From the NCBI GenBank assembly GCA_964558395.1, contig CAZLDS010000004.1, forward strand, positions 20,897 through 84,896: a stretch of 64,000 nucleotides of DNA. The letters run 5' to 3'. The translations under genes and the position numbers were made by a program. Each line of letters begins with the position of its first letter. The stretch's first letter is position 1. Positions 22,241 to 55,900 of the stretch are shown here, one piece after another. The notes below the pieces were generated by a model. The model had not been told where the DNA came from. It ran no database searches and worked only from the letters and a program-made list of their open reading frames with translations. This stretch comes from an uncultured bacterium (GTDB lineage Bacteria; Methylomirabilota; Methylomirabilia; Methylomirabilales; CSP1-5).

Positions 22241-22987
22241 TTAGAGACGCTGAAAGAGCCATTCAGGCGTGAAGTGCAGCGCGAAAGTCGAGAGGAGGGT
22301 GAAATAGTCCGTCAAAAGCAATACGCCCACTAGGATGAGCAAGAGACCGCTCCCGCGACTCACCCAGGGGAGCAGGCGCGTGAACCGACGGAAGAAGTAG
22401 AGGAACCGCTCAAAAAGCAGCGCGCTGAGAAAGAAAGGAATGGCGAGCCCCGCGGAGTAGGCCACGAGCAGGAGGATGCCCTGCCCGACGGTCTGGGAGG
22501 TGCTTGCCATGACCAGGATCGAACCGAGAATGGGGCCCACACACGGAATCCATCCGGCGGCAAAGGTCACGCCTACCAGGAAGGCCCCCAGGTAGCCACC
22601 GGGTTGGACCTTCAAGTCCACGTGTCTTTCTCGCATCAGGAACGGGAGGCTGAGCCATCCGGCGATGTGCAGCCCAAACAGAATAACCAACAGCCCACCG
22701 ATTTTGCGAATGACGAGCTGATAATCAAACAGGACCTGGCCGAGTGCGGTTGCTGAGGCCCCGAAGGCGATGAATATGCTCGAGAATCCAACAATAAAGG
22801 CCACGGAATGCGAGAGGAGAAGGCGTCGATTCTTGGCATGAGGAGCTGAGCCTTGCACCTCCTCCACGGAGAGACCACCTACGAAAGCGAGGTAGGAAGG
22901 GATGAGGGGAAAGACACAGGGCGAAAGGAACGAGAGCAGACCTGCCCCCATGGCTACCAAGACCGATACTTGCGCCGCCGCGCTCAT
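22241..22987 (-). CDS. ccdA: Cytochrome c biogenesis / thiol-reductant transfer membrane protein CcdA (DsbD core family)
   Basis: 248 aa with 6 or more TM segments. The two conserved membrane Cys motifs are present: LSPCVFPLIPSYL and WIPCVGPILGSIL. Confidence 0.9.
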   Translation of the reverse strand: MSAAAQVSVLVAMGAGLLSFLSPCVFPLIPSYLAFVGGLSVEEVQGSAPHAKNRRLLLSHSVAFIVGFSSIFIAFGASATALGQVLFDYQLVIRKIGGLLVILFGLHIAGWLSLPFLMRERHVDLKVQPGGYLGAFLVGVTFAAGWIPCVGPILGSILVMASTSQTVGQGILLLVAYSAGLAIPFFLSALLFERFLYFFRRFTRLLPWVSRGSGLLLILVGVLLLTDYFTLLSTFALHFTPEWLFQRL

Positions 22988-23034: not shown

Positions 23035-23086
23035 ATAGTAACGGCCGGGACGGCATTTGGCAACGGTCCCCCATCCCCTCGCTTCC
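23035..23086 (-). promoter_or_regulatory. Candidate promoter region of ccdA
   Basis: The minus strand has TTGCCA-17 nt-TACTAT (23063-23035). Overlapping it is GGAAG-N17-GTT (23086-23062), a weaker relative of the GGAAT-N18-GTT elements at 24.6-24.8 kb. Confidence 0.3.
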
Positions 23087-23186: not shown

Positions 23187-24002
23187 TCAAGGGTGGCTGC
23201 CTTCGGAAAAGACGAGGGCACACTCGACGAGCTCGTCCCAGCCTACATCCGACACCAGCGCGTAAGTCATGTCCCCGCTATCCCAAAGGAGGATGTGTTT
23301 TCCCTGATACGCAGCGCTATAAAAGACCATACCCGATAGCTCCACCTTCTCGAGGCCCTCCAGCGAACCGCCATATCGCGGAAAGGCGAAGAGTGAGATG
23401 ATGTTTCGTCCCTTTTCGTACAGGATATACGCCGCCCGATGACCGGCCAGACGCGTGACCCGGCTACCGAGCAGCCGGATCCCCGCAGCGCTATAGTCCG
23501 GCACCCGGACGCGATGCCCGGTGCGCCCTTGAACCCAGACGGCCACCTGCTGGAGGTTCTCACTGGAAAGCTCTGTGGGGTTTTCGAGGGGGGCGAACTT
23601 CATGTGTTCCATGACCAGTTGAGCGACGAGCGGGTGAAGTGCGGGCGGCAAGCGGGGCGTCGCAATCAGATATCCGAGGAGTCCCCCGAGGAAGATGAGA
23701 AGCACCGAGGCGGCCAACGCCAACCACGACGCACGCCACCCCCAGCTCGACGTCCGAGCGGACCGCTTCCCTCCCTCGTCCAGCTCCCCAATCCTCGCTC
23801 GGAGCTTCTCCGCGACATGGGGCGGAACTGGTTCCTGAGAAACCGCCCTTCTGAGTTCTTCCCGGAATGCGTGTTCCGCCTCGACAGCCCGCTGGCAGGA
23901 AGGGCACTCCTGAAGATGCCCTTCGACCTCTAACGTCATCGAGGCGTTAAGTTCCCCGTCGCAATACGCTTGAAGAAACCGTGCAACCTCAGGACACCTC
24001 AT
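23187..24002 (-). CDS. Membrane-spanning anti-sigma factor with an N-terminal zinc-binding (zf-HC2 / ZAS-type HxxxCxxC) domain
   Basis: MRCPEVARFLQAYCDGELNASMTLEVEGHLQECPSCQ, then one TM segment (WLALAASVLLIFLGGLLGYLI) and an extracytoplasmic domain of about 160 aa. ATG 24002 is preceded by GGAGGA. It sits directly after the ECF sigma gene. Confidence 0.85.
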   Translation of the reverse strand: MRCPEVARFLQAYCDGELNASMTLEVEGHLQECPSCQRAVEAEHAFREELRRAVSQEPVPPHVAEKLRARIGELDEGGKRSARTSSWGWRASWLALAASVLLIFLGGLLGYLIATPRLPPALHPLVAQLVMEHMKFAPLENPTELSSENLQQVAVWVQGRTGHRVRVPDYSAAGIRLLGSRVTRLAGHRAAYILYEKGRNIISLFAFPRYGGSLEGLEKVELSGMVFYSAAYQGKHILLWDSGDMTYALVSDVGWDELVECALVFSEGSHP

Positions 24003-24018
24003 CCGTCCTCCTTCTAAC

Positions 24019-24567
24019 CTATTCGCTCTTCGTGTAGTCCTGAAGAGCGTCTCGCAACGCCTGCCGGCCACGGTACAGCCGCGACATCACGGTCCCGATG
24101 GGACACTGGGAGATCTCTGCGATCTCCCGATAGCTACAGCCCTCGAGATCCGCCAGGACCACCGTCAGGCGCAGCTTCGGCGGAAGGGCCGCGATGGCCC
24201 GCTGAATCTCCTCGCCCGTCAACCGGCGAATGAGATCGACCTCGGGAGCCCGGGACATCACGCTCCCGCGCTCCGCCTCCCGGTAGACTCGCTCCTCGTC
24301 AAAGTCGACTCCCTGCGCAGAGGCCTGCCGGATCCGATTAACAAAGAGATTGTGCAAGATGGCAAAGAGCCAAGCCCGACAATCGGTCCCCTGTTGGAAC
24401 TGATGGAAGAAGCGGTATGCCCTGAGGAACGTCTCTTGAAAAAGATCCTCCGCCTCGCTCTTATTTCGCGTGAGCCGCAGGGCCGCGTTGTATATTCGCT
24501 GCATATGGACCAGGGCAATCTCCTCAAATTCTTGCCGCCCTGGGTCTCCGCGATCGGGCCCCATCAC
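24019..24567 (-). CDS. ECF-type RNA polymerase sigma-70 family factor
   Basis: 182 aa. Region 2 (AEDLFQETFLRAYRFF ... WLFAILHNLFVNRIR) and region 4 (CSYREIAEISQCPIGTVMSRLYRGRQAL) are present. The start is GTG 24567 or ATG 24564. Confidence 0.9.
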   Translation of the reverse strand: MMGPDRGDPGRQEFEEIALVHMQRIYNAALRLTRNKSEAEDLFQETFLRAYRFFHQFQQGTDCRAWLFAILHNLFVNRIRQASAQGVDFDEERVYREAERGSVMSRAPEVDLIRRLTGEEIQRAIAALPPKLRLTVVLADLEGCSYREIAEISQCPIGTVMSRLYRGRQALRDALQDYTKSE

Positions 24568-24611
24568 CTGCTCCTGATGAAGGGGGAAAGGGCCCCATTC
24601 TCGTTCACGGG

Positions 24612-24638
24612 AACAGCCCCACCACCGAGAATATTCCC
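24612..24638 (-). promoter_or_regulatory. ECF (SigR/SigH-type) promoter candidate upstream of the ECF sigma gene
   Basis: The minus strand reads GGGAATA-N16-TGTT, i.e. GGAAT-N18-GTT. It ends 45 nt upstream of the sigma gene start. Confidence 0.5.
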
Positions 24639-24729
24639 TTTCCCAGAGAGATGCCCCTTCATCTTCAACAAATCCCCCGCAGCTGTCAACCGGATCGCCG
24701 ACCCCTCACGCGCCTTTTCGCCAAAATCA

Positions 24730-24756
24730 GGGAATAACATGCACCATCACCCTGTT
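24730..24756 (+). promoter_or_regulatory. ECF (SigR/SigH-type) promoter candidate upstream of the DUF3179 selenoprotein gene
   Basis: The plus strand reads GGGAATA-N16-TGTT, with identical hexamers and spacing to the divergent copy at 24612-24638. It ends about 60 nt upstream of ATG 24818. Confidence 0.5.
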
Positions 24757-24817
24757 GAACGCATATAAGAAGGACACTTGAGGGAGGGCAACGGAGAAAA
24801 GGGAGTTGGTTCTGGGT

Positions 24818-25894
24818 ATGAAGCAATATGTCTCGGCTGAACTGTCAGTCCTCGCACTTTTGTGGGTAATTCCTACTCTCGCTGGCCCCCTTCCTTATCA
24901 AGGCAGTCTGATCATCGACGGAGCCCCGGTGATCACCGTCCTCGGCAAAGATGCCATCCCGGCCACCAACCGGCCGGAGTTTATGTCGGTCCAGGAACCC
25001 AGTCCAGACTTCCGGGACGACGAACCGGTTCTGGGGGTACGGCGAGGCACGGTGGCCCGGGCCTATTCCCTCTGGCAACTAAACCACCACGAAATTGTCA
25101 ACGACCAGGTGGGAGATCTCCCACTCGCCATTACGTGGTGACCCCTCTGTTTCACGGGCATCGTGTATGTCCGACCAACATATCAGGGAAAACCACTCAC
25201 CTTCGGCGTCAGTGGGATGCTCTGGAAAGACGCCCTCGTCATGTATGATCGGGAGACCGAAACCCTGTGGAGCCACTTTAACGCCAGGGCCATCCACGGG
25301 ACGCTCCGGGGGACGGAGCTCAAACCTTACCCTGCGATTCACACAACATGGGGGGAGTGGAAGCAACTCTATCCCAATAGCAAGGTGCTGTCGAAAAGAG
25401 CGACGCTCGGGGGTATCAGAGGTCCCCATAACGTGTACGCCGGGTATATGGCCGACCCGAATCAGCTCGGGATCTTCGGGACGCGCAATCCGGACCACAC
25501 CCTGCCTGGAAAGGAGCACGTCTTTGGCCTCAAGTTCAAGGACGAGAGGGTGGCCTACCCGCTTCAATATCTGCGTCGCTCTCCGCTGGTCCATGACACG
25601 GTGGCTGGCGAACCGGTCCTCGTGGTGTTCATCGCCCGGGAAGCTACGGCAGTCGCCCTATCTCGTCATGTCGGGGGAAAGACCCTGGACTTCGCGCGTC
25701 TCCGTCAAACCGCAAGAAAATGGCTCATTGAGGATACGTTAACTGGGTCCAGATGGAGGGCACTGAATGGTGAAGCGATCGCTGGCCCACTGAAAGGGTC
25801 CCGCGTCACACCACTGCCAGGACACCAGGTCTTTTGGTTCGCGTGGAAGGGGTTCTACCCGCACACGCGTCTGTGGACCGGAAATAAACCTTGA
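24818..25894 (+). CDS. DUF3179 family exported protein; probable selenoprotein (U-P-L-C) with in-frame TGA at 25139-25141
   Basis: ORFs 24806-25141 and 25163-25894 share a frame. Read-through gives DEPVLGVRRGTVARAYSLWQLNHHEIVNDQVGDLPLAITW-U-PLCFTGIVYVRPTYQGKPLTFGVSGMLWKDALVMYDRETETLWSH, which matches DUF3179 blocks on both sides of the TGA. The TGA sits at the first Cys of the family CPLC motif. An N-terminal signal peptide is present. Confidence 0.8.
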
Positions 25895-26053
25895 CAATGC
25901 CAGTTGGGGTTACTATGAAGGGGGCACTTTTCCCGAACCCGCTCCCCCCGGGAAATCGCTTGCGCTTGCCCCCAGTCCGGGGTGGAGGCACCAATAATCG
26001 ATGAGTCCTAGGAGTTCAATCAGGCGTCAAGCCTCGCGCAACTGCCTGTAACC

Positions 26054-26857
26054 ATGCATAGTCCAATCTCAGCCTTTGCAAAAGGGGCCTCCGCGTATCA
26101 GGAGTACCTTGAAAGCCCGCATGGGCGGCTCCGATTGGAGATTATCTGGCATCAATTGTCGGCCTTCATGGCGAAGGCATGGGGACCTAACCGAGAGCCC
26201 GTTCGGGTTCTCGACATCGGCTGTGGGACCGGAGAAGTCGCTCTGCGCCTGGCTGCTCAGGGCCATGCGGTCACCCTCCTCGACTCGGTGGCGGCCATGC
26301 TGGATCTCGCCAAAGACAAGCTACGGGAGAAAGCACCGCCGCCCATTGCGCCATGCTTTCTCCACGGATCCCTCGAAGAGGCGTCCGATCTGCTCGAAAA
26401 GCAAACCTTCGATCTTCTCCTGTGCCACACGGTTGTGGAATACCTCCCAAATCCGGAGAGCGCCCTGGGTCCGTTTCGCTCCCTTCTCAACCGAGGGGGA
26501 TTCCTCTCCCTGGTCACCCTGAATGATTGGCAAGCGCCAATCCGCCTGGCCGTCCGGGATCGTAAATTCGACCAGGCAAGGGACGCCCTCGCGGCCGAAG
26601 AACCCACAGATTCCCTCTTCGGCATTCCTCGCAAGCGGATGGTCACCCACGAATTGTGCACGCAACTCGAGGCGGTCGGGATCGAGGTGCTCAGTCATGA
26701 GGGCATCGTGGTCTTCGCAGATTATCTCCCATCCACGGTGCTCAAGGACACTTCTCACTTCGAATCCCTGCTCCGCCTCGAAGTAGAAGCCGCCACTCGT
26801 TCTCCCTTCAAAGAGGTAGCTCGGTACTTCCATCTCTGGGGCAGGCGGACCGGATAA
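26054..26857 (+). CDS. Class I SAM-dependent methyltransferase, SmtA/CmoM-like
   Basis: SAM motif I VLDIGCGTGEVALRLA. The overall layout resembles E. coli SmtA/CmoM (LLCHTVVEYLPNPESAL ... RGGFLSLVTLN ... ARYFHLWGRR). Confidence 0.8.
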   Translation: MHSPISAFAKGASAYQEYLESPHGRLRLEIIWHQLSAFMAKAWGPNREPVRVLDIGCGTGEVALRLAAQGHAVTLLDSVAAMLDLAKDKLREKAPPPIAPCFLHGSLEEASDLLEKQTFDLLLCHTVVEYLPNPESALGPFRSLLNRGGFLSLVTLNDWQAPIRLAVRDRKFDQARDALAAEEPTDSLFGIPRKRMVTHELCTQLEAVGIEVLSHEGIVVFADYLPSTVLKDTSHFESLLRLEVEAATRSPFKEVARYFHLWGRRTG

Positions 26858-26872
26858 TCAGTTGGACTGCGG

Positions 26873-27550
26873 ATGGGAATCACGGTTATTATTCCGGCAC
26901 TCAATGAAGAAGAGGCAATCGGCACGGTCGTGACCGAAGTCCCCCGCGACCTCGCGAGTGAGATTATCGTTGTAGATAACGGCAGCACGGATCGGACGGC
27001 GGACATGGCCAGCGCGGCCGGCGCGAAGGTGATTCGCGAGCCGATGCGAGGGTACGGGGCGGCCTGTCTCGCAGGAGCGATGGCGGCTCACAATGATATC
27101 CTCGTCTTCTTGGACGGTGATCGGAGCGACGATCCGCAAGAAATGCCGGTTGTTCTTGCTCCCCTTCTGGACGGACAAGCTGATCTGGTCATCGGATCGC
27201 GTACGGCGGGCTTCACCGAGAAAGGAGCGCTGACGTCGCAACAGCGGTTCGGGAACCAACTCGTCACCTGCGTCGTTCGACTCCTGTACGGCATTACCCT
27301 GACTGACATCGGTCCCTTTCGAGCCATCCGGGCGTCAGTCCTGCGAGATCTCGGCATGGAGCACAAGACCTATGGATGGCCTGTGGAGATGGTCGTTAAG
27401 GCAGCCAAGAAAGGCTACCGCGTTATGAATGTTCCGGTCAGCTGTCGGAAGAGAATCGGCGTCTCAAAGGTGGCGGGGACGATGAAAGGCAGCATCCTGG
27501 CGGGCTATCATCTACTGTCGACCACTGTGCGATATGCCTGGAGGAGATAG
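26873..27550 (+). CDS. Family 2 glycosyltransferase (dolichyl/polyprenyl-phosphate sugar synthase-like)
   Basis: ITVIIPALNEEEAI ... VVDNGSTDRT ... VFLDGDRSDDP (DxD motif). Confidence 0.85.
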   Translation: MGITVIIPALNEEEAIGTVVTEVPRDLASEIIVVDNGSTDRTADMASAAGAKVIREPMRGYGAACLAGAMAAHNDILVFLDGDRSDDPQEMPVVLAPLLDGQADLVIGSRTAGFTEKGALTSQQRFGNQLVTCVVRLLYGITLTDIGPFRAIRASVLRDLGMEHKTYGWPVEMVVKAAKKGYRVMNVPVSCRKRIGVSKVAGTMKGSILAGYHLLSTTVRYAWRR

Positions 27551-27554
27551 CGCG

Positions 27555-28547
27555 ATGGCATACTCCGTTGGCATCGGTCTCACGAACGAATGCAATTTAC
27601 GATGTCCCCATTGCTACCGCCCCGATATGGTGATCGAGCGTCTCACGTTCCGGGAGGTGCAGGAGGTCTGCGAGAGCATTCCGATCCGATCGATGAACCT
27701 CGGCGTGGGAGAGAATGGACTCCACCCGGAATATCAAGCCATCCTCGATTATGTCTGGACGCAGGGCATCAAGACGACCATCACCTCGAACGGACTCAGT
27801 ATTCAGGCACTCTCGGACAAGCACGTTAAGCGCTTTCATAGCGTGGAGTTTTCCCTGGACTTCCCCACCGAGCGGGAGCACGACGCCTTTCGGGGGACAG
27901 GGAACTGGCGCGGCGTCATGGAGGCGATCGCGCGGTGTGCCGACATCGGCCTCTCGGTCACGGTGACTTCGGTCATGATGAGCATCAATTACGAGAAACT
28001 GGGCGATCTCGCCAAGGTGGCCGCCTCGGTCGGGGCCAACCTCCGAGTGAACATCTATCAACCCGCAAAGACGGATCAGTTTACGCTGAGGTACGAGCAA
28101 TTCTGGGAAGGATTCAGGCGCCTCTTGGGCGACACACGCCTGGTCGCCACCACCGAGCCTGTCTTAGCCGGAGTCCTGGGACTGGACGGGTTCGACGGTC
28201 CGGCGTGTGGCCGTTCCACGGTTCGGGTGGCCCCCGACGGTCGAATCCTTCCCTGCACGTACTGGCCGAAGAGTCGTCTGACCCTTGCCGACCTGAAAGC
28301 CCTCGGCGAAGACATCGTGCAGGCACCGGAGTTCCTCGAGGCCCGGCAGGTTCCCCCAGCGTGCGCGGGGTGTCCGTGTCGGGGTGGCTGCGCGGGCAGG
28401 CGCGCCGTGCTCGGTAACCTCCATGGATCTGATCCCTACTGCCCCTTTGTGAGGGGTGATCGACTCATGATCGAATGGGAGCAGGCAACAGGGCAGGATC
28501 TCCCCAAGGTGGGAAGCGCCTGCACCACGGTCGTGTCAGCACTGTAG
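27555..28547 (+). CDS. Radical SAM enzyme with a C-terminal SPASM/twitch-type Cys cluster
   Basis: CNLRCPHCY is the CxxxCxxC motif. C-terminal ACGRSTVRVAPDGRILPC ... CAGCPCRGGCAGRR. ATG 27555 is preceded by GGAGGAGA. Confidence 0.85.
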   Translation: MAYSVGIGLTNECNLRCPHCYRPDMVIERLTFREVQEVCESIPIRSMNLGVGENGLHPEYQAILDYVWTQGIKTTITSNGLSIQALSDKHVKRFHSVEFSLDFPTEREHDAFRGTGNWRGVMEAIARCADIGLSVTVTSVMMSINYEKLGDLAKVAASVGANLRVNIYQPAKTDQFTLRYEQFWEGFRRLLGDTRLVATTEPVLAGVLGLDGFDGPACGRSTVRVAPDGRILPCTYWPKSRLTLADLKALGEDIVQAPEFLEARQVPPACAGCPCRGGCAGRRAVLGNLHGSDPYCPFVRGDRLMIEWEQATGQDLPKVGSACTTVVSAL

Positions 28548-28577
28548 AGGCGTTTCGCGAGCGATGAGGACTGAGCG

Positions 28578-29597
28578 ATGAGCGATGAGATGAACCACTC
28601 GAAGCGTCTTCCGGTCGCGGCCGAATTACCCCGCACCCTCTATCTGGAGACGACCAATCGCTGTAACTCGAAATGCCAGACGTGCGTCCGGACTTTTCTC
28701 ACCCTTGAGCCGCCCAAGGACCTCACCCTGGCCGAGCTGAAGAGCATCGTGGACCAATTCCCAGTCTTGGAACGGGTCGTTCTCCACGGGGTTGGCGAGC
28801 CGCTGTTGAATCGAGAGCTTTTCGAAATGATCGCATACGTGAAGGCCCGGGGCGCAACGGTCCTGTTCAACTCCGATGCCATCAGCCTCACCCCAAAGCG
28901 CGCCCAACAGCTCATCGACAGCCGCCTGGATGAATTGCGCGTCTCCATGGACGGGGCGACCCGCGAAACGTATGACAAAATTCGCGGCGTTGACCAGTTC
29001 GACCGGGTCGTGGGAAATGTCAGTCATCTGCTCGACCTGCAGCGGAAGCTCAAGAGAGAGACCCCCCGCGTCTCCCTCTGGTTTACCGCCATGAAGGCCA
29101 ATCTCCATGAGCTCCCGGCATTCGTGCGACTGGCCGCCAGGATTGGAGTCCCGGAGGTCTACGTCCAGCGCCTCGTATATAACGGCCACGGGATCGCTGT
29201 GGCCGACCAGTCGCTTCACCGGGCGATGCACGAGCGGGAGCAAAAGTTGATCGCAGAGGCAGATGAGTTAGCGCGGACTTTCCAAATCGCCTTCAAGGCC
29301 TCAGGCTTGACCACGCCCATGGAAAGTCTCCAAGGAACGGAACTCGGTAAACGGCCCTGGTCCGGCTGCCACCGTCCCTGGACGCTGAGCTACGTAACGG
29401 CAAACGGCAACGTGCTCCCCTGCTGCCTCGCCCCTTGGACGGCGAAAAACTACCGGGGGGCCCTCTTGGGCAATGCCTTCACGGACGATTTTTCGCGCAT
29501 CTGGAACGGGGAACAATACCGGCAGTTCAGAGAGACGTTCGAGAGCGACGTCCCTCCAGATCCCTGCCACGGGTGCGGACTGCTCTGGAGTTATTAA
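28578..29597 (+). CDS. Radical SAM / SPASM domain protein
   Basis: TNRCNSKCQTCV is the CxxxCxxC motif. C-terminal CHRPWTLSYVTANGNVLPCC ... IWNGEQYRQFR ... DPCHGC. Confidence 0.85.
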   Translation: MSDEMNHSKRLPVAAELPRTLYLETTNRCNSKCQTCVRTFLTLEPPKDLTLAELKSIVDQFPVLERVVLHGVGEPLLNRELFEMIAYVKARGATVLFNSDAISLTPKRAQQLIDSRLDELRVSMDGATRETYDKIRGVDQFDRVVGNVSHLLDLQRKLKRETPRVSLWFTAMKANLHELPAFVRLAARIGVPEVYVQRLVYNGHGIAVADQSLHRAMHEREQKLIAEADELARTFQIAFKASGLTTPMESLQGTELGKRPWSGCHRPWTLSYVTANGNVLPCCLAPWTAKNYRGALLGNAFTDDFSRIWNGEQYRQFRETFESDVPPDPCHGCGLLWSY

Positions 29598-29614
29598 GGC
29601 CCAAGGAGGCAAGG

Positions 29615-30148
29615 ATGAACCTTGGACAAGAAGGTTCCACGCATATCAGTCCCTCGGTGTCCCTGGGACTGTTTCGCATGGGATTCGGCATCCTCTACCT
29701 GCACGCGGCCTGGCAAAAAGCTCCCTGGGTGATCAACGATGGGCAGCGGTTCGGGTGGCTCTACGGCTGGATCTGGCAAGAGATCAACCACCCAACCTTC
29801 GGCTGGTATAAGGCCTTCCTGCAGAAGGTCGTCCTCCCGAACTTCACCTTCTTCGGTTACATGAGCTTTCTAACGGAGGTCGCACTCGGGCTCTCGTTCC
29901 TCTTTGGGCTCTTTACGGTGCTCGGGGGTATCGGCGGGGCGTTATGGCAGCTGAACATCGCCCTGGGCAGCTACTCGGTACCCGGCGAATGGGGCTGGAT
30001 CTGGTTTCTCCTCATCGTCCCCCATTTGGTCTTTGCCCAGAGCCGGGCGGGACGCACTCTGGGAATAGACTGGCTGCTCTGGAACCAGCTGTCTCGAGTT
30101 CAGCGCCGACGCTCAGCACTCGGAAAGCTACTCCTTCGGCTTGTCTAA
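29615..30148 (+). CDS. DoxX-like small polytopic membrane protein
   Basis: 177 aa with 4 TM segments. ATG 29615 is preceded by AAGGAGG. The family call is from overall layout only. Confidence 0.55.
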   Translation: MNLGQEGSTHISPSVSLGLFRMGFGILYLHAAWQKAPWVINDGQRFGWLYGWIWQEINHPTFGWYKAFLQKVVLPNFTFFGYMSFLTEVALGLSFLFGLFTVLGGIGGALWQLNIALGSYSVPGEWGWIWFLLIVPHLVFAQSRAGRTLGIDWLLWNQLSRVQRRRSALGKLLLRLV

Positions 30149-30158
30149 GGAGGTACTC

Positions 30159-31529
30159 ATGGCCTGGAGGAGCCCCTCCTTTCTTCTGCTGGTCGGTGGG
30201 GGGATCGCATCGGCGTTTTTATACCTCCTGAATTTTGACATCATTCCTTTGGTCCAACATCTTGGGCTCATCGGTCCCCACCAAGATGCACTTGCCGTAT
30301 ATCCTATCCTGTTTTTTCTGCTCTTTGCCCTGTACCTGCTTGCTGTCGCCGTCATCTTCCGAAAGCGCTCCGAGCCTCACTCTGTGGGTGTGATCCTCGG
30401 ATTCGCTTTACTCTTTCGGGTCGCCCTCCTTGTTTCCCCTCCGGCCCTCTCGAGCGATGTGTACCGGTACGTCTGGGACGGTCGGGTTCAGACGGCCGGG
30501 ATCAGCCCGTACCTGTATGCCCCGTCGGCCCAAGAGCTGGCCCCGCTTCGAGACGAGGAAATCTTTCCGCACATCAATCGGCGGGATGTCCCCACCATTT
30601 ATCCGCCCGGCGCGCAGATGCTCTTGGCCTCCAGCGCTGTTTTCTTCCCAGACAGTGTCACGGGTCTGAAACTCATCATGATCTTGTTCGACATCGGGAC
30701 CATCTTCCTGATCCTTCGTGTCTTGAAAAAGACCGGAATCCGGACGGATCGGGTCGTGCTCTACGCGTGGTCTCCCCTCGTGATCTTTGAGGTAGCCGGA
30801 AGCGGCCATCTCGAGGCCGTGATGCTCCCGTTCGTCCTTCTCGCCCTCCTGGCCAGGATGGACGAAAGGCCGCTCCTCGCCGGCACGGCGCTTGGAGTCG
30901 CCACGTTGATCAAACTGTACCCGGCAGTCCTCTTTCCGGCCCTCTACAAGCGGCGAGAGAGGATGTTTCCCCTGGCCTTTGGCGCGACAATCCTGCTTGG
31001 ATACCTCCCATACCTCTATGGTGCCGGGGATCGCGTACTGGGATTCTTGCCAGCCTACTTCGGCCCCTGGGAGGACTTTAACGTCGGGCTCCGCTATTTT
31101 GTCACTTCCGCGTTGGCGACCCTCACCCCCTCGCCTCGCCCCATCGCCATGCTCCTCGTCACGGCCCTTCTTAGCGCGGTAGCCGTGTATATTCTCCGTC
31201 AAAGACAAGATGAAGCGTTCCTGTGGCACGGATACCTGATGGTGAGTGCCTATTTACTTTTTCTGCCGACGAGTTTTCATCCGTGGTACCTCATTTGGAT
31301 TCTCCCTTTTCTCTGTCTCTATCCCTCGTGGGGATGGCTCTATCTCAGCGGGGCCATTGGACTCTCCTACCTGAAATATGTCCAGGGGGGGCCCATTGTC
31401 CCCCTCGGCATTCGACTTGTGGAGTTCGTCCCCCTGTACGTGTTGCTCAGCATCGAGGCCGTCCGCCATCGTCGCCTGCATCTCGGTCCACGTGAAACCA
31501 TGACGCTCATGATGGAGAAACCGCAATGA
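30159..31529 (+). CDS. Polytopic GT-C-type glycosyltransferase (DUF2029 / GT87 / PIG-V-like mannosyltransferase family)
   Basis: About 456 aa with 10 or more TM segments. The first-loop motif LSSDVYRYVWDGRVQTAGISPYLYAP is typical of polyprenyl-phosphate-sugar-dependent GT-C enzymes. AAGGAGG RBS upstream. Confidence 0.7.
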   Translation: MAWRSPSFLLLVGGGIASAFLYLLNFDIIPLVQHLGLIGPHQDALAVYPILFFLLFALYLLAVAVIFRKRSEPHSVGVILGFALLFRVALLVSPPALSSDVYRYVWDGRVQTAGISPYLYAPSAQELAPLRDEEIFPHINRRDVPTIYPPGAQMLLASSAVFFPDSVTGLKLIMILFDIGTIFLILRVLKKTGIRTDRVVLYAWSPLVIFEVAGSGHLEAVMLPFVLLALLARMDERPLLAGTALGVATLIKLYPAVLFPALYKRRERMFPLAFGATILLGYLPYLYGAGDRVLGFLPAYFGPWEDFNVGLRYFVTSALATLTPSPRPIAMLLVTALLSAVAVYILRQRQDEAFLWHGYLMVSAYLLFLPTSFHPWYLIWILPFLCLYPSWGWLYLSGAIGLSYLKYVQGGPIVPLGIRLVEFVPLYVLLSIEAVRHRRLHLGPRETMTLMMEKPQ

Positions 31530-33151
31530 TATCCTCCAACATTCCAGAAGCACTGCTCCTCCTCCTTTACTTCGGCGCGCTCTTCCTGCTGTTTCTCTAC
31601 GGGATCAATTGTTACATCATGATCTTCCTTCACCGCCGGGCGAAAGAGCGCAACCATCAGCACGACGAAGCGGTCTGGACGGCGTGGCAGACCACGAAGC
31701 GAGACCTTCCCCACGTCACTGTGCAACTGCCGATTTACAACGAGCGATACGTGATCCAGCGACTGATCGAGTCGGTCGTGCGCTTGGACTACCCAAAGGA
31801 CCGGCTCGAGATTCAAGTCTTGGACGACTCCACAGACGAAACAACAGCCATCGCCGCCCCCCTCATTGACCGCTACCATCGGGCCGGTTTCGACATCACC
31901 CTTCTTCATCGCGTGACAAGGACCGGATATAAGGCCGGGGCCTTAAAGGAGGGGCTGGAAGTCGCCCGGGGGGAGTTCGTCGCCATCTTTGACGCCGACT
32001 TTATGCCCAAACCGGACTTTCTTATGAAGACCATTCCCTTCTTCCACGATCCCGCCATCGCCATGGTCCAGGCCCGTTGGGGGCACATCAACCGGGATTA
32101 TTCCCTCCTGACGCTCGCCCAGAGCTTCGGGATCGACGGCCACTTTTGGGTGGAGCAGGCAGCCCGATGTTGGTCCGGGCTCTTCATGAACTTCAATGGG
32201 ACGGCCGGGATCTGGCGGAGGAAGGCGATCGACGATGCCGGGGGGTGGCAGGCGGACACCCTGACGGAGGATTTGGATCTGAGCTATCGGGCGCAACTGA
32301 AAGGGTGGCGGATGAAATTCTTGCCGCAGGTCGTCTGCCCAGCCGAGGTCCCGGTCCAGATCGCCGCCGCAAAGAGCCAGCAGCACCGCTGGGCGAAGGG
32401 ATCGATTCAAACCGCCATGAAACTCGTTCCCGAGATTCTGAGGGCCGAGGTCCCGCTTTTCACCAAGTATCAAGCGGTCTTTCACCTGACCAACTACATG
32501 GTGCATCCCCTCATGTTGGTCGTTGCCCTGAGCTCGCCTCTCCTCCTCTGGTTCGACGGATTCTTCGCGCTTCGGGAGCATCTCTTTGCGGCAGCGGCGG
32601 TCTTTTCGATCGCGGCGTTCGGACCCTCGAGCATGTATCTTTACGCCCAACAACATCTCTATCCGGACTGGAAACGGCGCTTGAAATACTTCCCGTCCCT
32701 GCTCGTCTTCGGGACGGGGATCGCCCTCAACAATACCGAGGCCATTCTGGAGGCTTTCTTCAAGGTGGACGGGGCCTTTGTTCGGACGCCGAAATTCCGG
32801 ATCGAAAAAAGGTCGGACACGTGGGTGGAAAAGCGATATCGCCCCCCGATCCCATGGCTCAGTCTGTTCGAGGCCGTCCTCGCCCTCTACTGTCTGTATG
32901 GGGTCTCCCTTTTCATTCAACGGGGCAAGTACCTCATCGATCCCTTTCTCATCCTCTACTCCGTCGGATTCGCCACCGTCGCCACGATGAGCTTGTGGGA
33001 GACCCTGTGGGGCTCGGTGATCCATCCCAAGCCAGAAAGGAAACCCAAAGAAGGTGATGACGCTTTGGAGGCCCAGGTGTTGAGACTGGTGGAAGAGCGC
33101 GAGGGGGTCACGGCGGCGGCCGTTCCCTTGGAAAGGAGGCCGGTGGCATGA
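31526..33151 (+). CDS. Membrane-embedded processive family 2 glycosyltransferase (cellulose synthase / CslA-like)
   Basis: DDSTDET, FDADF, TEDLDLSYR and the QxxRW motif (QQHRWAKG), flanked by TM segments. ATGA overlap with the upstream gene. Confidence 0.85.
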   Translation: MISSNIPEALLLLLYFGALFLLFLYGINCYIMIFLHRRAKERNHQHDEAVWTAWQTTKRDLPHVTVQLPIYNERYVIQRLIESVVRLDYPKDRLEIQVLDDSTDETTAIAAPLIDRYHRAGFDITLLHRVTRTGYKAGALKEGLEVARGEFVAIFDADFMPKPDFLMKTIPFFHDPAIAMVQARWGHINRDYSLLTLAQSFGIDGHFWVEQAARCWSGLFMNFNGTAGIWRRKAIDDAGGWQADTLTEDLDLSYRAQLKGWRMKFLPQVVCPAEVPVQIAAAKSQQHRWAKGSIQTAMKLVPEILRAEVPLFTKYQAVFHLTNYMVHPLMLVVALSSPLLLWFDGFFALREHLFAAAAVFSIAAFGPSSMYLYAQQHLYPDWKRRLKYFPSLLVFGTGIALNNTEAILEAFFKVDGAFVRTPKFRIEKRSDTWVEKRYRPPIPWLSLFEAVLALYCLYGVSLFIQRGKYLIDPFLILYSVGFATVATMSLWETLWGSVIHPKPERKPKEGDDALEAQVLRLVEEREGVTAAAVPLERRPVA

Positions 33152-34800
33152 AGCAAACCCCATGCCGGGGCATGAGGAGAAGGACCCTTTGGCCGCTGGG
33201 TCTCTTTATGCTCGGTATCCTTATCCTTTCGGGCCCGGGTTTTCGCCACGGCGCGGTCGCGGCTCAACGAACGCGTTCCATCTTGGCCGAGTCGCCGTGG
33301 CCAAAGTACCGTGGTGATCCAAGGAATACCGGCCGAAGTCGCCACACTGGACCCGCGTCGGACACATTGAAGTGGACCTTTTCAACGGGGCGCCGGGATA
33401 AGGAGGGAGGCATCGAGACCGATCCTGTGATCGGTCCCGACGGCACTGTCTACTTCGGAGCGAACAACGGAATCCTGTATGCCCTCGATCCCGAAAACGG
33501 AGATATCCGCTGGGCCTTTCCAACACAATTCGATACCTTTGCGATTTATTCGAGTCCATTCGTGGACGAAGATGGAATTGTCTATTTCGGGGCGAAGGAC
33601 GGAACGGTGTATGCCCTGAGGGCTCCGCGCACGGGGATCATGGGAGAGGTCGTCTGGTCATTCGACGTCGGCACCACGATCCAGACCTCGCCGACGTTCA
33701 CTCCGGATGGAACACTCGTCATCGGTGCCGACGACTGGGCCTACTATGGGATCACGCCACCCCGAGACAACACGGGGCCAAAACTGAAGTGGCGCTTTCA
33801 AACCCAGGGGACCCTCATCACGTCTCCGGCGGTGGACTCCGACGGGACGGTGTTCGTCGCCTCGATGGATGGGAACGTCTATGCCCTTGAGCCGGCCAAG
33901 GAGGCGGGACAGCCCGTCAAAGTCCGCTGGACCTTTCCCTCGGGGGACCGGGATGCCAAGGGGGGATTCGAGAACGCCCCGGCGATCGATGATACGGGCA
34001 CCCTGTACATCGGAGGCAACAACGGGCTCCTGTATGCCCTCGACGTGAAGACGGGACGTGTGAAGTGGACCTTCGACGGCGTGGCCCAGTCCGGCTACCG
34101 AACCTTTGCAATTTTCTCATCGGCTGCCGTCGGGCCAGAGGAGACCATCTACTTTGGAGGAAAGAATGGCGTGCTCTACGCCCTGCGGGAAAGCCGAGGA
34201 CTTTTCTCGACCGGCGCCCAGGTCCTGTGGCGCTATAATGTGGGGCCGGGCATCCAGTCGTCGCCCCTGCTGGCGGCGGACGGAACGATCTACCTCGGCG
34301 ATGAGAAAGGAACCCTCCACGCTACTCGGCCTCCCCCGTCCGGAGAGTGGGCGACTTCTCTGTGGAAGTTCGCCACCAAAGGGATCGTGATCTCCTCAGC
34401 CGCCCTCGGGGCTGACGGAACCCTGTACACGGCATCGATGGACGGCAAGGCGTATGCCTTTCACGACGGCAAGAAGGTGCAATCATCCCAGGGTCCGCTT
34501 TCGGGGACGTGGTACGGCACTTACCAGGATGTTGGCGGCACCGGCAAAATCACCGTCGTCCTCGTGCAGCGAGGGACAGAGCTTCAAGGGATTTGGAGAA
34601 TTCAGGGTGGCGTCCGAGGCTCCCTCACGGGAAAGATCGAGGGAGATCAAGGCACCTACACTTTGCAGCCGCTGTCCAAGACATGTCTTGGGGACGGGGA
34701 GGGAACGATCACAATCGCTGGGACGACGCTCACCGGGCAGTATCGTGGCCAGGACTGTCGCGGGAAGATCGAGGGCGGCACACTTGAAGTGCACCGCTGA
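33148..34800 (+). CDS. Secreted PQQ-like / BamB-like beta-propeller repeat protein with an extra C-terminal beta domain
   Basis: Signal peptide, then at least 7 repeats of the DGT(V/I)Y.G..DG.(L/V)YAL type. ATGA overlap with the upstream GT2 gene. Confidence 0.8.
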   Translation: MKQTPCRGMRRRTLWPLGLFMLGILILSGPGFRHGAVAAQRTRSILAESPWPKYRGDPRNTGRSRHTGPASDTLKWTFSTGRRDKEGGIETDPVIGPDGTVYFGANNGILYALDPENGDIRWAFPTQFDTFAIYSSPFVDEDGIVYFGAKDGTVYALRAPRTGIMGEVVWSFDVGTTIQTSPTFTPDGTLVIGADDWAYYGITPPRDNTGPKLKWRFQTQGTLITSPAVDSDGTVFVASMDGNVYALEPAKEAGQPVKVRWTFPSGDRDAKGGFENAPAIDDTGTLYIGGNNGLLYALDVKTGRVKWTFDGVAQSGYRTFAIFSSAAVGPEETIYFGGKNGVLYALRESRGLFSTGAQVLWRYNVGPGIQSSPLLAADGTIYLGDEKGTLHATRPPPSGEWATSLWKFATKGIVISSAALGADGTLYTASMDGKAYAFHDGKKVQSSQGPLSGTWYGTYQDVGGTGKITVVLVQRGTELQGIWRIQGGVRGSLTGKIEGDQGTYTLQPLSKTCLGDGEGTITIAGTTLTGQYRGQDCRGKIEGGTLEVHR

Positions 34801-52941: not shown

Positions 52942-55900
52942 TCACCTTGACGCAGGTTCCAAGCTGGATGTACCCGCATAATGGCTGGGCGCAAAGCGCA
53001 GGTACAGGCTAGGGACGACGAAAAGGTTGAGCAGTGTCGAGGTGACCAGGCCGCCCAGAACCACGAGGGCCAACGGGTGTTCGATCTCGTTGCCGGGAAT
53101 CGAGCCCGCAATCACCAGGGGCACGAGGGCCAGCCCGGTTGTGGTCGCGGTCATCAAGATGGGCGCCAGCCGTTCCCGTGCCCCGCGCAGGACGAGCGCG
53201 GGGCCAAAGGTCTCCCCCTCATACGCTTCCAGATGCTGAAAGTGATTGATCATCAAAATACCGTTGCGTGCCGCAATTCCCAACACGGTGAGGAATCCCA
53301 CGAGCGAACCGAGCGAGATGACGCCGTCACCCAACCAAGCCGCCAGCACACCGCCCACTAGGGCCGAGGGGAGAAGCACAAAGGAAATGACCGCCAGGCG
53401 GGCACTATTAAAGGAGGTGTGGAGTAAGAGGAAAATCGCGAGCAGACCGACAATTGCGAAGGCGAGCATTTTGCGCTGAACCGCCAGCCGCTCCGTATAT
53501 TCCCCCAGCAGCACCGGATAGTACTCATGGGGGAACTCGATCTTGGCGAGGGCGGCCTGCACATCGGCATAGACCGCGCCAAGAGGGCGTCCACGCACGT
53601 TGGCATCAACGTCCATGCGGCGACTGAGGTTCTCACGTTGGACGACATTCGGCGTTGGCGCGATGCGCACATCGGCCACTTCCTCCAAACGCGCGTGACC
53701 GCCGCCAGGCGTGTCAATTAAAAGGTTCTTAATATCGCTCAGACTATGGCGCGCCGAAGGTATGCTCCACACATTCACATCGTACGTCCGGTTGGCGATG
53801 TGAATATCGCCGGCTTCCTCGAGGGCCACCAAGGTAGTCGTTGCTCGGCGCACGTCTCCTGGTTTAACGCCATACTTTTGGGCCTTCGCTAGATCGACCT
53901 TCACTTCGATCTGGGGGATCTTTTCCTGAAAGGACATGTGCAGATCGATGATGCCGTCAATCTTCGCCAGGGCATCTCTCACTTCCGTCGCCTTTTGCTT
54001 GAGGACATCCAGATCACGCCCATAGATCCGCACCACAATCGCATCGGAGCTTCCGGTGAGCACCTCGCGGATCCTCTCTTTGAGATAGGTCTGCACGTCG
54101 CGATAGACCCCGGGGTAGCCGTCAACGGCCGCCTGGATTTTGCGGAGCGTCTCGTCATAGTCCACCGCAGGATCGACGCTGATCCAATTTTCGCCGAAAT
54201 ACACACCGACCACTTCATCCATGATCAGGGCTTGCCCGATGTGGGCCCCGAAATTGCGGACACCGGGAATGGACCGCAATTCCTTACTGGCCTGAACGGT
54301 GATGCGGGCCTCCTCTGGCCAGGAGGTGCCGGGCTTGGTGAGCCAGTGCATCAGGAAGTCCCTCTCCTTGAACGAAGGCAGCAGCGAATGCCCGAGTAGC
54401 GGCCACACGACGATGCCCGCCAGCATGATGACGCCGACGGTCAGATAGGCCGGGAGGGGCGTCTTGACAATCCGCGAAAGTACCGTGCCGTAGCCGCGTT
54501 GCAGCCAGCGCGTGAGCGGGGACTCGCGGTGCTCGAGCGGGACATTCCGCAACAGAATAAAGCTCATTGCCGGTGTGACAGTCAGTGCGACCACCATGGA
54601 CGCTGCAATCGCTATCGCATAAGAAAACGCCAGGGGCCTGAAAAATGCACCAGACAACCCCTCCATCACGAAGACCGGCAACAGTGCCGCGATTTCGATC
54701 AGCGATGCGACGACGATGGCGTGGCGCACCTCATACGAGGCCTCGAGAACGACTCTCCCAAACGGTACCTGGCTGCCCTCCTTACGATACTCGCGCAGGC
54801 GTCGCACGATGTTTTCGACATCGACGATCGCATCATCCACCACGGCGCCCAGGGCAATCACCAGCCCGGCCAACACCATGGTATTGATGGTTGTCCCACG
54901 TAAGTAGAGGACCATCATTGCCGACATCAGCGATAAGGGGATCGCCGTACAACTGATCAACGCGGTACGCCACTCGTACAGAAAGACAAAAAGAACCAGC
55001 ACGACGAGAACCGCGGCGATGATAAGCGCCTTGTTGAGATTGTGGACGGCCACCTCGATGAAGGTGGCCGGCCGGAAGATGGTCGTGTCAATGTCCACAT
55101 CGGGAAGACCGGGCCGCAAGGCATCGAGCGCCTTTTCGACTTCCCGAGACACTTGCAGCGTGTTGCCCCAGGGGAATTTTTCCACGATGAGCAGCAGGCC
55201 GGGACCCTCGTTGACGATACCTTCGCCAACCATCGGTTGATGATCAATCACCACCTCGGCCACGTCTTTCAGCAGCAGCTGTTTGCCATTCCTGACGGCA
55301 AGGGGCACATTGGCCAGGGGATCCGTCGTGACCTGGTCATACTTCTGGACCACGGGGGGGACGTGCCGGATTTGCAGCCTTTGGTTCGGGGTCTCCACCC
55401 ACCCGCCGCTGCCGATATGGTGTCCCTCTGAAAATTTGAACAAACCCACGTCCAAAGAGTCGGCCGTGGCCCCCATGACCTCTTCCAGCGTCACCTTGTG
55501 CTTGCGCAACAACTCCGGTACGACGTTGACATTCAGCATTTGCAGCCGCTCGCCCCACATGGCGACATTGGCCACACCGGGGACGCGCAACAAGCGCTGC
55601 CGGATGGTCCAATAGGTGATCATCGACAAGTCCATTACGGATCGGGTTTTCGACGAAATCCCGATCTTCATCATCCGGCTGGTTGACGACAGGGGCGGCA
55701 GCATCACGGGCGGGCTGGCCCAGCTTGGCAACGTCGGGACGACTGTTATAATGCGCTCGTTCAGCATCTGCCGCGCCAGCAGCAGATCCGTGCCGGGCTT
55801 GAAATACATCTTGATTGCCGACAAACCAGGAACCGACTTGGAGCGCATGGCGGTCATCCCCGGCACGCCGGCGAGCACCTGCTCCAGCGGAGCCGTGACC

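Follow-up and report, generated by a model that had tools for sequence, protein, structure and literature searches.

The divergent locus and its two promoter-like elements

We analyzed a 64,000-nucleotide stretch of DNA from an uncultured bacterium (contig CAZLDS010000004.1, hereafter the window), focusing on the 250-bp gap between a sigma factor gene of the extracytoplasmic function (ECF) type and a divergently oriented DUF3179 gene. The sigma factor gene (24019..24567, minus strand) starts with GTG and encodes 182 aa with sigma2 and sigma4 domains only (Pfam Sigma70_r2 and Sigma70_r4_2), and its homologues place the window in Candidatus Methylomirabilales, phylum NC10. An anti-sigma factor gene and ccdA lie downstream on the same strand. 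On the plus strand, the DUF3179 gene (24818..25894) is followed by methyltransferase, glycosyltransferase, and radical SAM genes. The gap itself holds two promoter-like elements, each facing one of the flanking genes.

On the minus strand, 24638..24612 reads GGGAATATTCTCGGTGGTGGGGCTGTT (GGGAATA TTCTCGGTGGTGGGGC TGTT), with a −35 box GGGAATA at 24638..24632, a 17-bp spacer, and a −10 GTT at 24614..24612 preceded by T at 24615. On the plus strand, 24730..24756 reads GGGAATAACATGCACCATCACCCTGTT (GGGAATA ACATGCACCATCACCC TGTT), with the −35 GGGAATA at 24730..24736 and the −10 GTT at 24754..24756. From exact consensus matches, position weight matrix (PWM) scores, and conservation, we assigned the first (24612..24638) as an ECF-type promoter of the sigma/anti-sigma operon and the second as a divergent ECF-type promoter directed toward the DUF3179 gene and the methyltransferase operon. 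The initial annotation had described two divergent, identically spaced GGGAATA-N16-TGTT elements lying 45 and about 60 nt from these genes. That description was accurate: the pattern occurs exactly twice in the window, the sigma GTG (24567) lies 44 nt from the sigma-side TGTT, and the DUF3179 ATG (24818) lies 61 nt from the divergent TGTT. The 16-nt spacers of the two elements are unrelated to each other, and the pair is therefore not a duplicated or mobile-element repeat.

The two matches to GGGAATA-N16-TGTT compare with 0.02 expected in 64 kb, and none of 100 shuffled sequences contained two or more. The looser published form, GGAAT-N18-GTT, found the same two sites and no others, as had also been claimed, against 1.95 expected by chance. 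What makes the pair significant is the extended identity, the shared 250-bp gap in which each element faces a gene, and above all conservation.

Both sites read GGAATA-N17-GTT and so conform to the SigH/SigR-type (ECF12) promoter, defined as GGAAT or GGAAYA, 17 bp, and GTT (equivalent to GGAAT-N18-GTT). The optimal promoter of Mycobacterium tuberculosis SigH has GGAAYA at −34..−29, a 17-bp spacer, and GTT at −11..−9, and the residues that read it have been named (PMC6411747). The Corynebacterium glutamicum SigH consensus is gGGAAta / t/cGTTgaa (PMC10012870), which the plus-strand site (GGGAATA...TGTTGAA) matches letter for letter, and Streptomyces coelicolor SigR recognizes GGAAT-N18-GTT (PMC2375139). 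Consensus and geometry thus bear out the SigR/SigH promoter type proposed in the initial annotation (PMC6411747; PMC10012870; PMC2375139).

Numbering both elements as in the SigH open complex, with GTT at −11..−9 (PMC6411747), predicts a transcription start at A24765 for the divergent promoter and at about 24603 for the sigma-side promoter, with an A at 24604/24605 as an alternative. A CAT-purine sequence 6–9 nt past GTT, corresponding to −3..+1 of the divergent promoter, is conserved in most orthologues. The SigH preference for G/C at −5 was uninformative, being present at 15 of 24 sites against a G+C background of 60%.

Conservation and specificity of the motif

To assess conservation, we collected 16 orthologous loci from genomes and metagenomes, in which the sigma factor is 69–84% identical, and aligned the intergenic DNA of 12 non-redundant orthologous regions (mean column identity, 50%). 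All orthologous Methylomirabilales loci whose upstream DNA was long enough had both elements in the same divergent arrangement. The sigma-side element occupied the same place in 11 of the 12 unique loci, with L085 carrying one mismatch (GAGAAT), and the divergent element was kept in all 12, irrespective of which gene came first downstream. The invariant alignment columns were TATTCC/AACA in the divergent promoter and GGAATATT/T.TT in the sigma promoter. The distance between GGAATA and GTT was 17 bp in all elements but the sigma-side ones of L003 and L005, where it was 16 bp. In the matrix of 21 sites described below, information content was 1.4–1.8 bits per position in both boxes compared to 0–0.5 bits in the spacer. 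Two short boxes that do not vary, separated by a spacer that drifts in sequence but not in length and oriented toward a gene, together form the signature of a sigma factor promoter.

This signature also bears on the idea that the elements are operator sites of a DNA-binding regulator rather than promoters. On the sigma side there is a candidate near-palindrome, GGAATATTCC, and in most orthologues the conserved stretch there reaches GGAATATTCTCG, which exceeds what a −35 box needs. However, two invariant boxes around a non-conserved spacer of fixed length, facing a gene at promoter distance, are the mark of a sigma factor and not of a dimeric regulator. Moreover, neither the divergent side nor the L003 and L005 loci show this extension. 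We therefore regard operator sites as very improbable.

A PWM built from 21 orthologous sites with an 18-nt gap between GGAAT and GTT scored the sigma-side element at 24.7 bits and the divergent element at 23.8 bits, well apart from a noise ceiling of ~14 bits in the real window. The scan returned no other site above noise in the window, the next best reaching 13.8 bits (shuffled sequences reached up to 21). When the spacer was allowed to vary by ±1, a site at 53477..53505 on the minus strand scored 19.8 bits; it lies inside a 1049-aa RND-transporter open reading frame (ORF), and we took it as a chance match. In the orthologous loci, each ~5–8 kb, sites above 19 bits were confined to the sigma intergenic region. 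Across the ~64-kb window and 14 orthologous loci, then, sites with high scores are essentially limited to the two promoter positions.

We also examined a wider set of 142 loci with distant sigma homologues (35–52% identity) from Rokubacteria, Acidobacteria, Planctomycetes, Myxococcota, and others. An exact GGAATA-N16-18-GTT on the sigma strand, 25–200 nt upstream of the gene, was present in 31 of them. Merely 11 further matches occurred in 858 kb counting both strands, with a handful of divergent second copies counted separately, which amounts to a ~190-fold enrichment upstream of the sigma homologues. This enrichment indicates that the motif belongs to a broad clade, and we read it not as a peculiarity of the window but as the promoter through which a multi-phylum group of SigH/SigR-related ECF sigmas autoregulates. 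A second, divergent GGAATA-N16/17-GTT copy stands upstream of sigma in L010, L029, L094, L118, and L144/L145 (Rokubacteria and Acidobacteria), so the bidirectional layout recurs outside Methylomirabilales.

Functionless chance resemblance would be compatible with the expected frequency of the loose consensus, at nearly two copies per window. Yet the extended motif is a different matter, the boxes are kept in all orthologues while the spacers drift, and the enrichment extends to distant relatives. Chance is effectively refuted, and the promoter pair is almost certainly real.

The adjacent sigma factor as the likely user of both promoters

The best NCBIfam family of the neighboring sigma factor was TIGR02947 (SigH_actino) at 158.5 bits, with the next family at 132.6. 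The best solved structure was M. tuberculosis SigH (E = 4.8e-40, 44% identity over 169 aligned residues), compared with E = 1.2e-29 for SigE and E = 4.2e-10 for SigL. The three SigH residues that read the −35 box, R186 (G−34), S182 (G−33), and M181 (−31/−30), are identical here as R166, S162, and M161. In the −10 pocket, SigH N92, I85, W81, N88, F72, and T76 are likewise identical as N77, I70, W66, N73, F57, and T61, while SigH I91 is replaced by V and SigH N77 by D62. Among the named reading residues (R186, S182, M181; N92, I85, W81, N88; F72, T76, N77), N77 is thus the sole exception.

The surroundings of the gene are those of a typical ECF module, combining a sigma factor of domains 2 and 4 only, a group-specific promoter upstream, and an anti-sigma gene immediately downstream, whose ATG follows the sigma stop codon after 13 nt. 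The sigma ORF has no in-frame start further upstream, as it opens at the first start past a stop, and an unstable long isoform like SigR' is therefore impossible. For the 5' leader of the sigma gene, the consensus fold had an energy of −5.9 kcal/mol with no covariation, so we claim no conserved structure there, and no known RNA families were found in the window or specifically in 24400-25300. A literature search found no paper on ECF sigma factors in Methylomirabilis.

Genuine ECF-type promoters could still serve another ECF sigma encoded elsewhere in this genome, either as its main users or in addition to the adjacent one, with overlapping specificity; in that case the adjacent sigma gene would be a target and not its own activator. 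Overlap between SigH and SigE promoters is documented in Corynebacterium, and GGAAN ... GTT is common to several ECF groups (PMC10012870). However, the motif accompanies this sigma gene across all orthologues and recurs upstream of its distant homologues in several phyla. In SigH-specific promoters, in contrast to SigE promoters, the T at −31 is associated with a Met residue (PMC10012870), which the window sigma carries as M161. Moreover, no second ECF gene was found in the 64-kb window. Main or additional use by another sigma factor therefore seems quite unlikely, and we infer that the adjacent sigma is the user of both promoters.

Our favored interpretation is that the elements form a divergent promoter pair for RNA polymerase carrying the adjacent ECF sigma factor, one promoter being autoregulatory and the other serving a divergent target; on sequence evidence we put its probability at roughly 80%. 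The initial annotation had argued for autoregulation and direct ECF control of the divergent operon, and this is still the best inference because of the promoter geometry, its conservation, and the SigH-like base-reading residues of the sigma factor. Several observations weigh against it. The count of GGAAT-N18-GTT is not significant alone, with ~2 expected per 64 kb, and the sigma factor falls below the curated TIGR02947 cut-off (158.5 vs 251.55 bits) and so outside that family. Half of the SigH residues that contact DNA or the bubble differ here (13 of 26 are identical). Motifs like GGAAC/T ... GTT are common to many ECF groups, another ECF sigma could share the promoters, and the visible portion of the genome is 64 kb only. 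Finally, read-through into the methyltransferase genes is conjectural, and these genes have a separate promoter-like element in front.

The anti-sigma factor and the nature of the signal

The anti-sigma factor gene (23187..24005, minus strand; Pfam zf-HC2) encodes 272 aa, in which a single predicted membrane helix separates an N-terminal zinc-binding domain (H30-x3-C34-x2-C37) from a C-terminal domain on the periplasmic side. The H-x3-C-x2-C motif is invariant across the aligned orthologues. The C-terminal domain of ~150 aa (residues ~125-272; window 23187-23640) is conserved, has one invariant Cys near its C-terminus (..DELxxCAxVF..), and matched no Pfam or NCBIfam family. A single-sequence AlphaFold model gave a membrane helix and a beta-rich C-terminal domain, with pLDDT about 70–85 there. 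Foldseek searches with this domain returned weak matches to RseB/MucB (half-barrels), TM1622, and DcrB, with E values of 1e-3 to 3e-2 that are below significance, so we treat the modeled likeness to RseB/MucB as a lead and not as a result.

The initial annotation had linked the promoters to thiol-oxidative stress. The mechanism this implies would make the sigma/anti-sigma pair a true equivalent of SigR-RsrA or SigH-RshA, in which cytoplasmic thiol oxidation of the zinc-finger anti-sigma frees the sigma factor to transcribe a thiol-oxidative regulon. In keeping with this idea are the invariant zinc motif and a PDB sequence search with the anti-sigma domain, in which RsrA alone passed E ≤ 0.01 (E = 0.0012, residues 3-76), with Cys3 placed opposite the RsrA trigger Cys11. 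The redox-type selenoprotein targets (DUF3179 with UxxC, and an AhpD/CMD-like ORF with TGA in L088) and the presence of ccdA in the operon also fit. However, at 272 aa, and with its membrane helix and conserved domain in the periplasm, the anti-sigma is unlike the ~100-aa soluble protein of those systems, and the RsrA family model (TIGR03988) scored it at 43.5 bits, below the cut-off of 62.5. The position equivalent to Cys11 is Cys in 5 of 13 orthologues and A, S, G, or T in the other 8, which mostly have a His one position later. Moreover, the window contained no motif-bearing gene of the classical SigR regulon, such as one for thioredoxin, and the conserved targets are envelope glycan/lipid-type genes.

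Because the anti-sigma is membrane-anchored and not RsrA-like, thiol-oxidative sensing is unproven, and the link drawn in the initial annotation was one of analogy only. We consider a full SigR-RsrA equivalent doubtful. An RsrA-like cytoplasmic thiol switch is possible but not supported, and an extracytoplasmic signal from the envelope or periplasm appears more likely.

Genes downstream of the divergent promoter

The DUF3179 gene has an in-frame TGA at 25139..25141, within the motif W-U-P-L-C, and its translation matches Pfam DUF3179 on both sides of this codon. A hairpin at 25155..25173, 16 nt downstream of the TGA, stands at the position of a bacterial SECIS element, and the TGA and hairpin are both conserved in all six DUF3179 orthologues. 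DUF3179 with UxxC/T is a listed selenoprotein family (PMC9312934). With the TGA at the UxxC/T position and a hairpin downstream, the selenoprotein reading holds at the level of sequence. The N-terminus resembles a signal peptide, suggesting an exported UxxC selenoprotein at a locus that also has a CcdA gene.

This gene was not a constant feature of the locus. It is present in the window, L001, L002, L004, L005, L007, and L085, and absent from L081, L006, and L084. In these three loci, the methyltransferase promoter-like element and gene come straight after the divergent ECF promoter, with no intervening ORF. The corresponding stretches (L081 1545-1760, L006 3495-3735, and L084 512-765) have flanks that align with window 24757-24785 and 25880-26070, and the L081 sigma is 84% identical to that of the window. 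The pattern points to recent gain or loss of DUF3179 between the ECF promoter and the methyltransferase promoter element. In L088 (3190-3729, minus strand) and also L087, the slot is instead filled by a CMD/AhpD-like ORF with an in-frame TGA (..GSSY-U-MDIRH..), a probable second selenoprotein behind the same promoter. In L003, the divergent gene encodes a secreted BNR/Ycf48-like propeller, and in L007 (1747-2508, minus strand), from a Methylomirabilis metagenome-assembled genome, a gene for a DedA/VTT-family membrane protein stands between the DUF3179 and methyltransferase genes. Across these loci, what appears constant is the ECF promoter and the methyltransferase operon, while genes for exported redox-type (seleno)proteins seem to come and go in the slot between them. 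For the slot genes, the ECF promoter was the sole promoter-like element detected upstream.

The next genes on the plus strand (26054..29597; assigned by Pfam) encode a methyltransferase, a GT2 polyprenyl-phosphate-type glycosyltransferase, a radical SAM protein, and a radical SAM/SPASM protein. They are syntenic in orthologues with or without DUF3179 and gave only sub-threshold NCBIfam matches. They are preceded by a promoter-like element, GGAAATA-N3-CTTGACAA-N13-TTACTAT (25880..25916, plus strand), defined by columns invariant in seven loci. Its TTGACA-N14-TACTAT is unique in the window (0.00 expected), and its spacing is odd for sigma-70, since TACTAT lies at 14 nt and TATGAA at 17 nt. The TGA within this TTGACA serves as the DUF3179 stop codon, leaving no room for a terminator before the element, and a simple scan found no terminator between the DUF3179 and methyltransferase genes. 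The initial annotation had the selenoprotein operon running on into the methyltransferase, glycosyltransferase, and radical SAM genes. This stands in part: where DUF3179 is absent, the ECF promoter would read straight into them, but with an invariant element of their own these genes are not simply the tail of a selenoprotein operon.

A partly conserved leader of ~130 nt (25917-26053) with no Rfam match follows the methyltransferase element. The co-directional cluster extends over 26054-34800 (plus strand), adding a GT87-like membrane glycosyltransferase, a cellulose-synthase-like GT2, and a PQQ/BamB-like propeller to the genes above, of which the GT2 is AglJ-like. Because none of the cluster proteins reaches a curated family cut-off, we consider the cluster, from its predicted proteins, an uncharacterized envelope glycoconjugate pathway.

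Additional predicted promoters on the minus strand

Between the two ECF promoters lies a candidate sigma-70-type promoter of the sigma operon, TTGACA-N17-GAAGAT (24661..24689, minus strand), with a predicted start near 24654. It is recognized by conservation: TTGACA is invariant in all 12 aligned orthologous regions, the spacing is gap-free, and positions 2, 5, and 6 of the second hexamer (A, A, and T, including A(−11) and T(−7)) are invariant as well. A consensus promoter scan did not call TTGACA-N17-GAAGAT, whose −10 matches at 3 of 6 positions. This element may be a housekeeping-type promoter that gives basal sigma expression. RNA polymerase positioned there (24661-24689) would overlap the −35 boxes of both ECF promoters.

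The ccdA gene (22241..22987, minus strand) encodes a CcdA/DsbD-type thiol-disulfide membrane transporter (Pfam DsbD_TM), lies downstream of the anti-sigma gene, and is syntenic in orthologues. The initial annotation had noted a weaker GGAAG-N17-GTT in front of it. That sequence exists at 23086..23062, but we rejected it as an ECF element, as GGAAG is not conserved, the site scores as noise, and its GTT is part of a sigma-70-type −35 box. The PWM scan found no ECF-type site before ccdA in any orthologous locus. Instead, sequence and conservation identify a sigma-70-type promoter for ccdA, TTGCCA-N17-TACTAT (23035..23063, minus strand), kept as TTGNNA-N17-TACCAT in L001, L003, L004, L005, L082, and L084. 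In L081, this promoter is absent and ccdA begins 35 nt after the anti-sigma gene.

Proposed mechanism and comparison with known systems

Taken as a working model, these features suggest the following sequence of events. The weaker, conserved housekeeping-type promoter would provide basal transcription of the sigma and anti-sigma genes, and the co-transcribed zinc-finger anti-sigma would hold the resting sigma factor at the membrane until a signal, most likely from the envelope or periplasm, frees it. The freed sigma would then initiate at both GGAATA-17-GTT promoters, recognizing them as M. tuberculosis SigH does, with domain 4 reading GGAATA (−34..−29) and domain 2 reading GTT (−11..−9) across a rigid 17-bp spacer. 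From the minus-strand promoter (start near 24603-24605), this would produce positive autoregulation through the sigma/anti-sigma transcript, possibly including ccdA. From the plus-strand promoter (start near 24765), it would express the exported DUF3179 selenoprotein (U-x-x-C), and the transcript may read through into the methyltransferase/glycosyltransferase/radical SAM envelope cluster, which has its own promoter-like element.

A broader and more speculative extension is that the sigma factor represents a multi-phylum, non-actinobacterial sister clade of SigH/SigR, in which the GGAATA-17-GTT code, instead of answering to a thiol switch in the cytoplasm, has come under a zinc-finger anti-sigma that is tethered to the membrane and senses through a periplasmic domain (possibly RseB/LolA-like, with a single Cys). 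A redox or lipid signal in the periplasm of Methylomirabilales would then act on two outputs: exported selenoproteins with the ECF promoter as their sole promoter (DUF3179 UxxC and AhpD-like Sec, swapping in the slot) and the radical SAM/glycosyltransferase envelope-modification cluster. We offer this scenario tentatively and think it rather unlikely.

Even so, the model gives a precise and testable regulatory prediction for the uncultured and biogeochemically important NC10 bacteria, which are nitrite-dependent methane oxidizers. It specifies two predicted starts of transcription, the sigma factor that would act on them, a promoter for basal expression, and a few direct targets, among them exported selenoproteins and an uncharacterized radical SAM/glycosyltransferase cluster. 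It further indicates that sigma factors whose anti-sigmas are membrane-bound employ the SigH/SigR promoter code far beyond the Actinobacteria, which is relevant to regulon prediction in metagenome-assembled genomes and to the choice of orthogonal ECF parts. It introduces no new mechanism or principle, being an ordinary case of an ECF sigma that controls itself and a neighboring gene set.

Among characterized systems, the closest likeness is to SigH of M. tuberculosis and of C. glutamicum and to SigR of S. coelicolor (ECF12). They share the promoter sequence and spacing, the window sigma is closest to SigH among both solved structures and NCBIfam families, the −35 readers (R, S, and M) agree, as do the central residues of the −10 pockets, and a zinc-finger anti-sigma gene stands immediately downstream of the sigma gene. 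By contrast, the present system belongs to NC10/Methylomirabilales and not to an actinobacterium, with a sigma below the TIGR02947 cut-off. Its anti-sigma is membrane-anchored with a periplasmic domain, no SigR'-like long isoform can be made, and its visible targets are envelope genes and exported selenoproteins rather than thioredoxin or mycothiol genes. The window sigma works like SigH/SigR in promoter recognition and autoregulation, yet it lies outside the curated actinobacterial SigH family. The sigR gene is preceded by two promoters, p1 and p2, one of its own type and one of the housekeeping type. The same combination occurs before the window sigma gene, but in reversed order, as here the ECF promoter is proximal and the housekeeping-type promoter distal.

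Other systems share parts of the arrangement. M. tuberculosis SigL-RslA, with a membrane-anchored zinc-binding anti-sigma (ZAS), likewise has a sigma limited to the sigma2 and sigma4 domains, transcribed together with its zf-HC2 anti-sigma from a promoter under autoregulation; however, the window sigma is far less similar to SigL than to SigH by the E values given above. In Rhodobacter sphaeroides, rpoE-chrR has an RpoE-dependent promoter for itself and another for a divergently transcribed operon, an example of the well-known divergent layout described here. ChrR differs in being soluble with a cupin domain, whereas the periplasmic domain in the window has no family match and a weak RseB/MucB-like resemblance.

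Escherichia coli RpoE-RseA-RseB offers a parallel on the side of the signal, as an ECF sigma held at the membrane (a feature we predict here), responding to envelope signals and serving targets in envelope biogenesis. RseB/MucB also gave the best, though weak, fold matches of the window periplasmic domain (E at least 1e-3, from a single-sequence model with pLDDT about 70). Unlike the anti-sigma described here, RseA does not belong to the zinc-finger anti-sigmas, and RseB forms a protein of its own. The promoters differ as well, with E. coli RpoE using a GGAACTT-N16-TCAAA-type sequence compared to GGAATA-N17-GTT at this locus.

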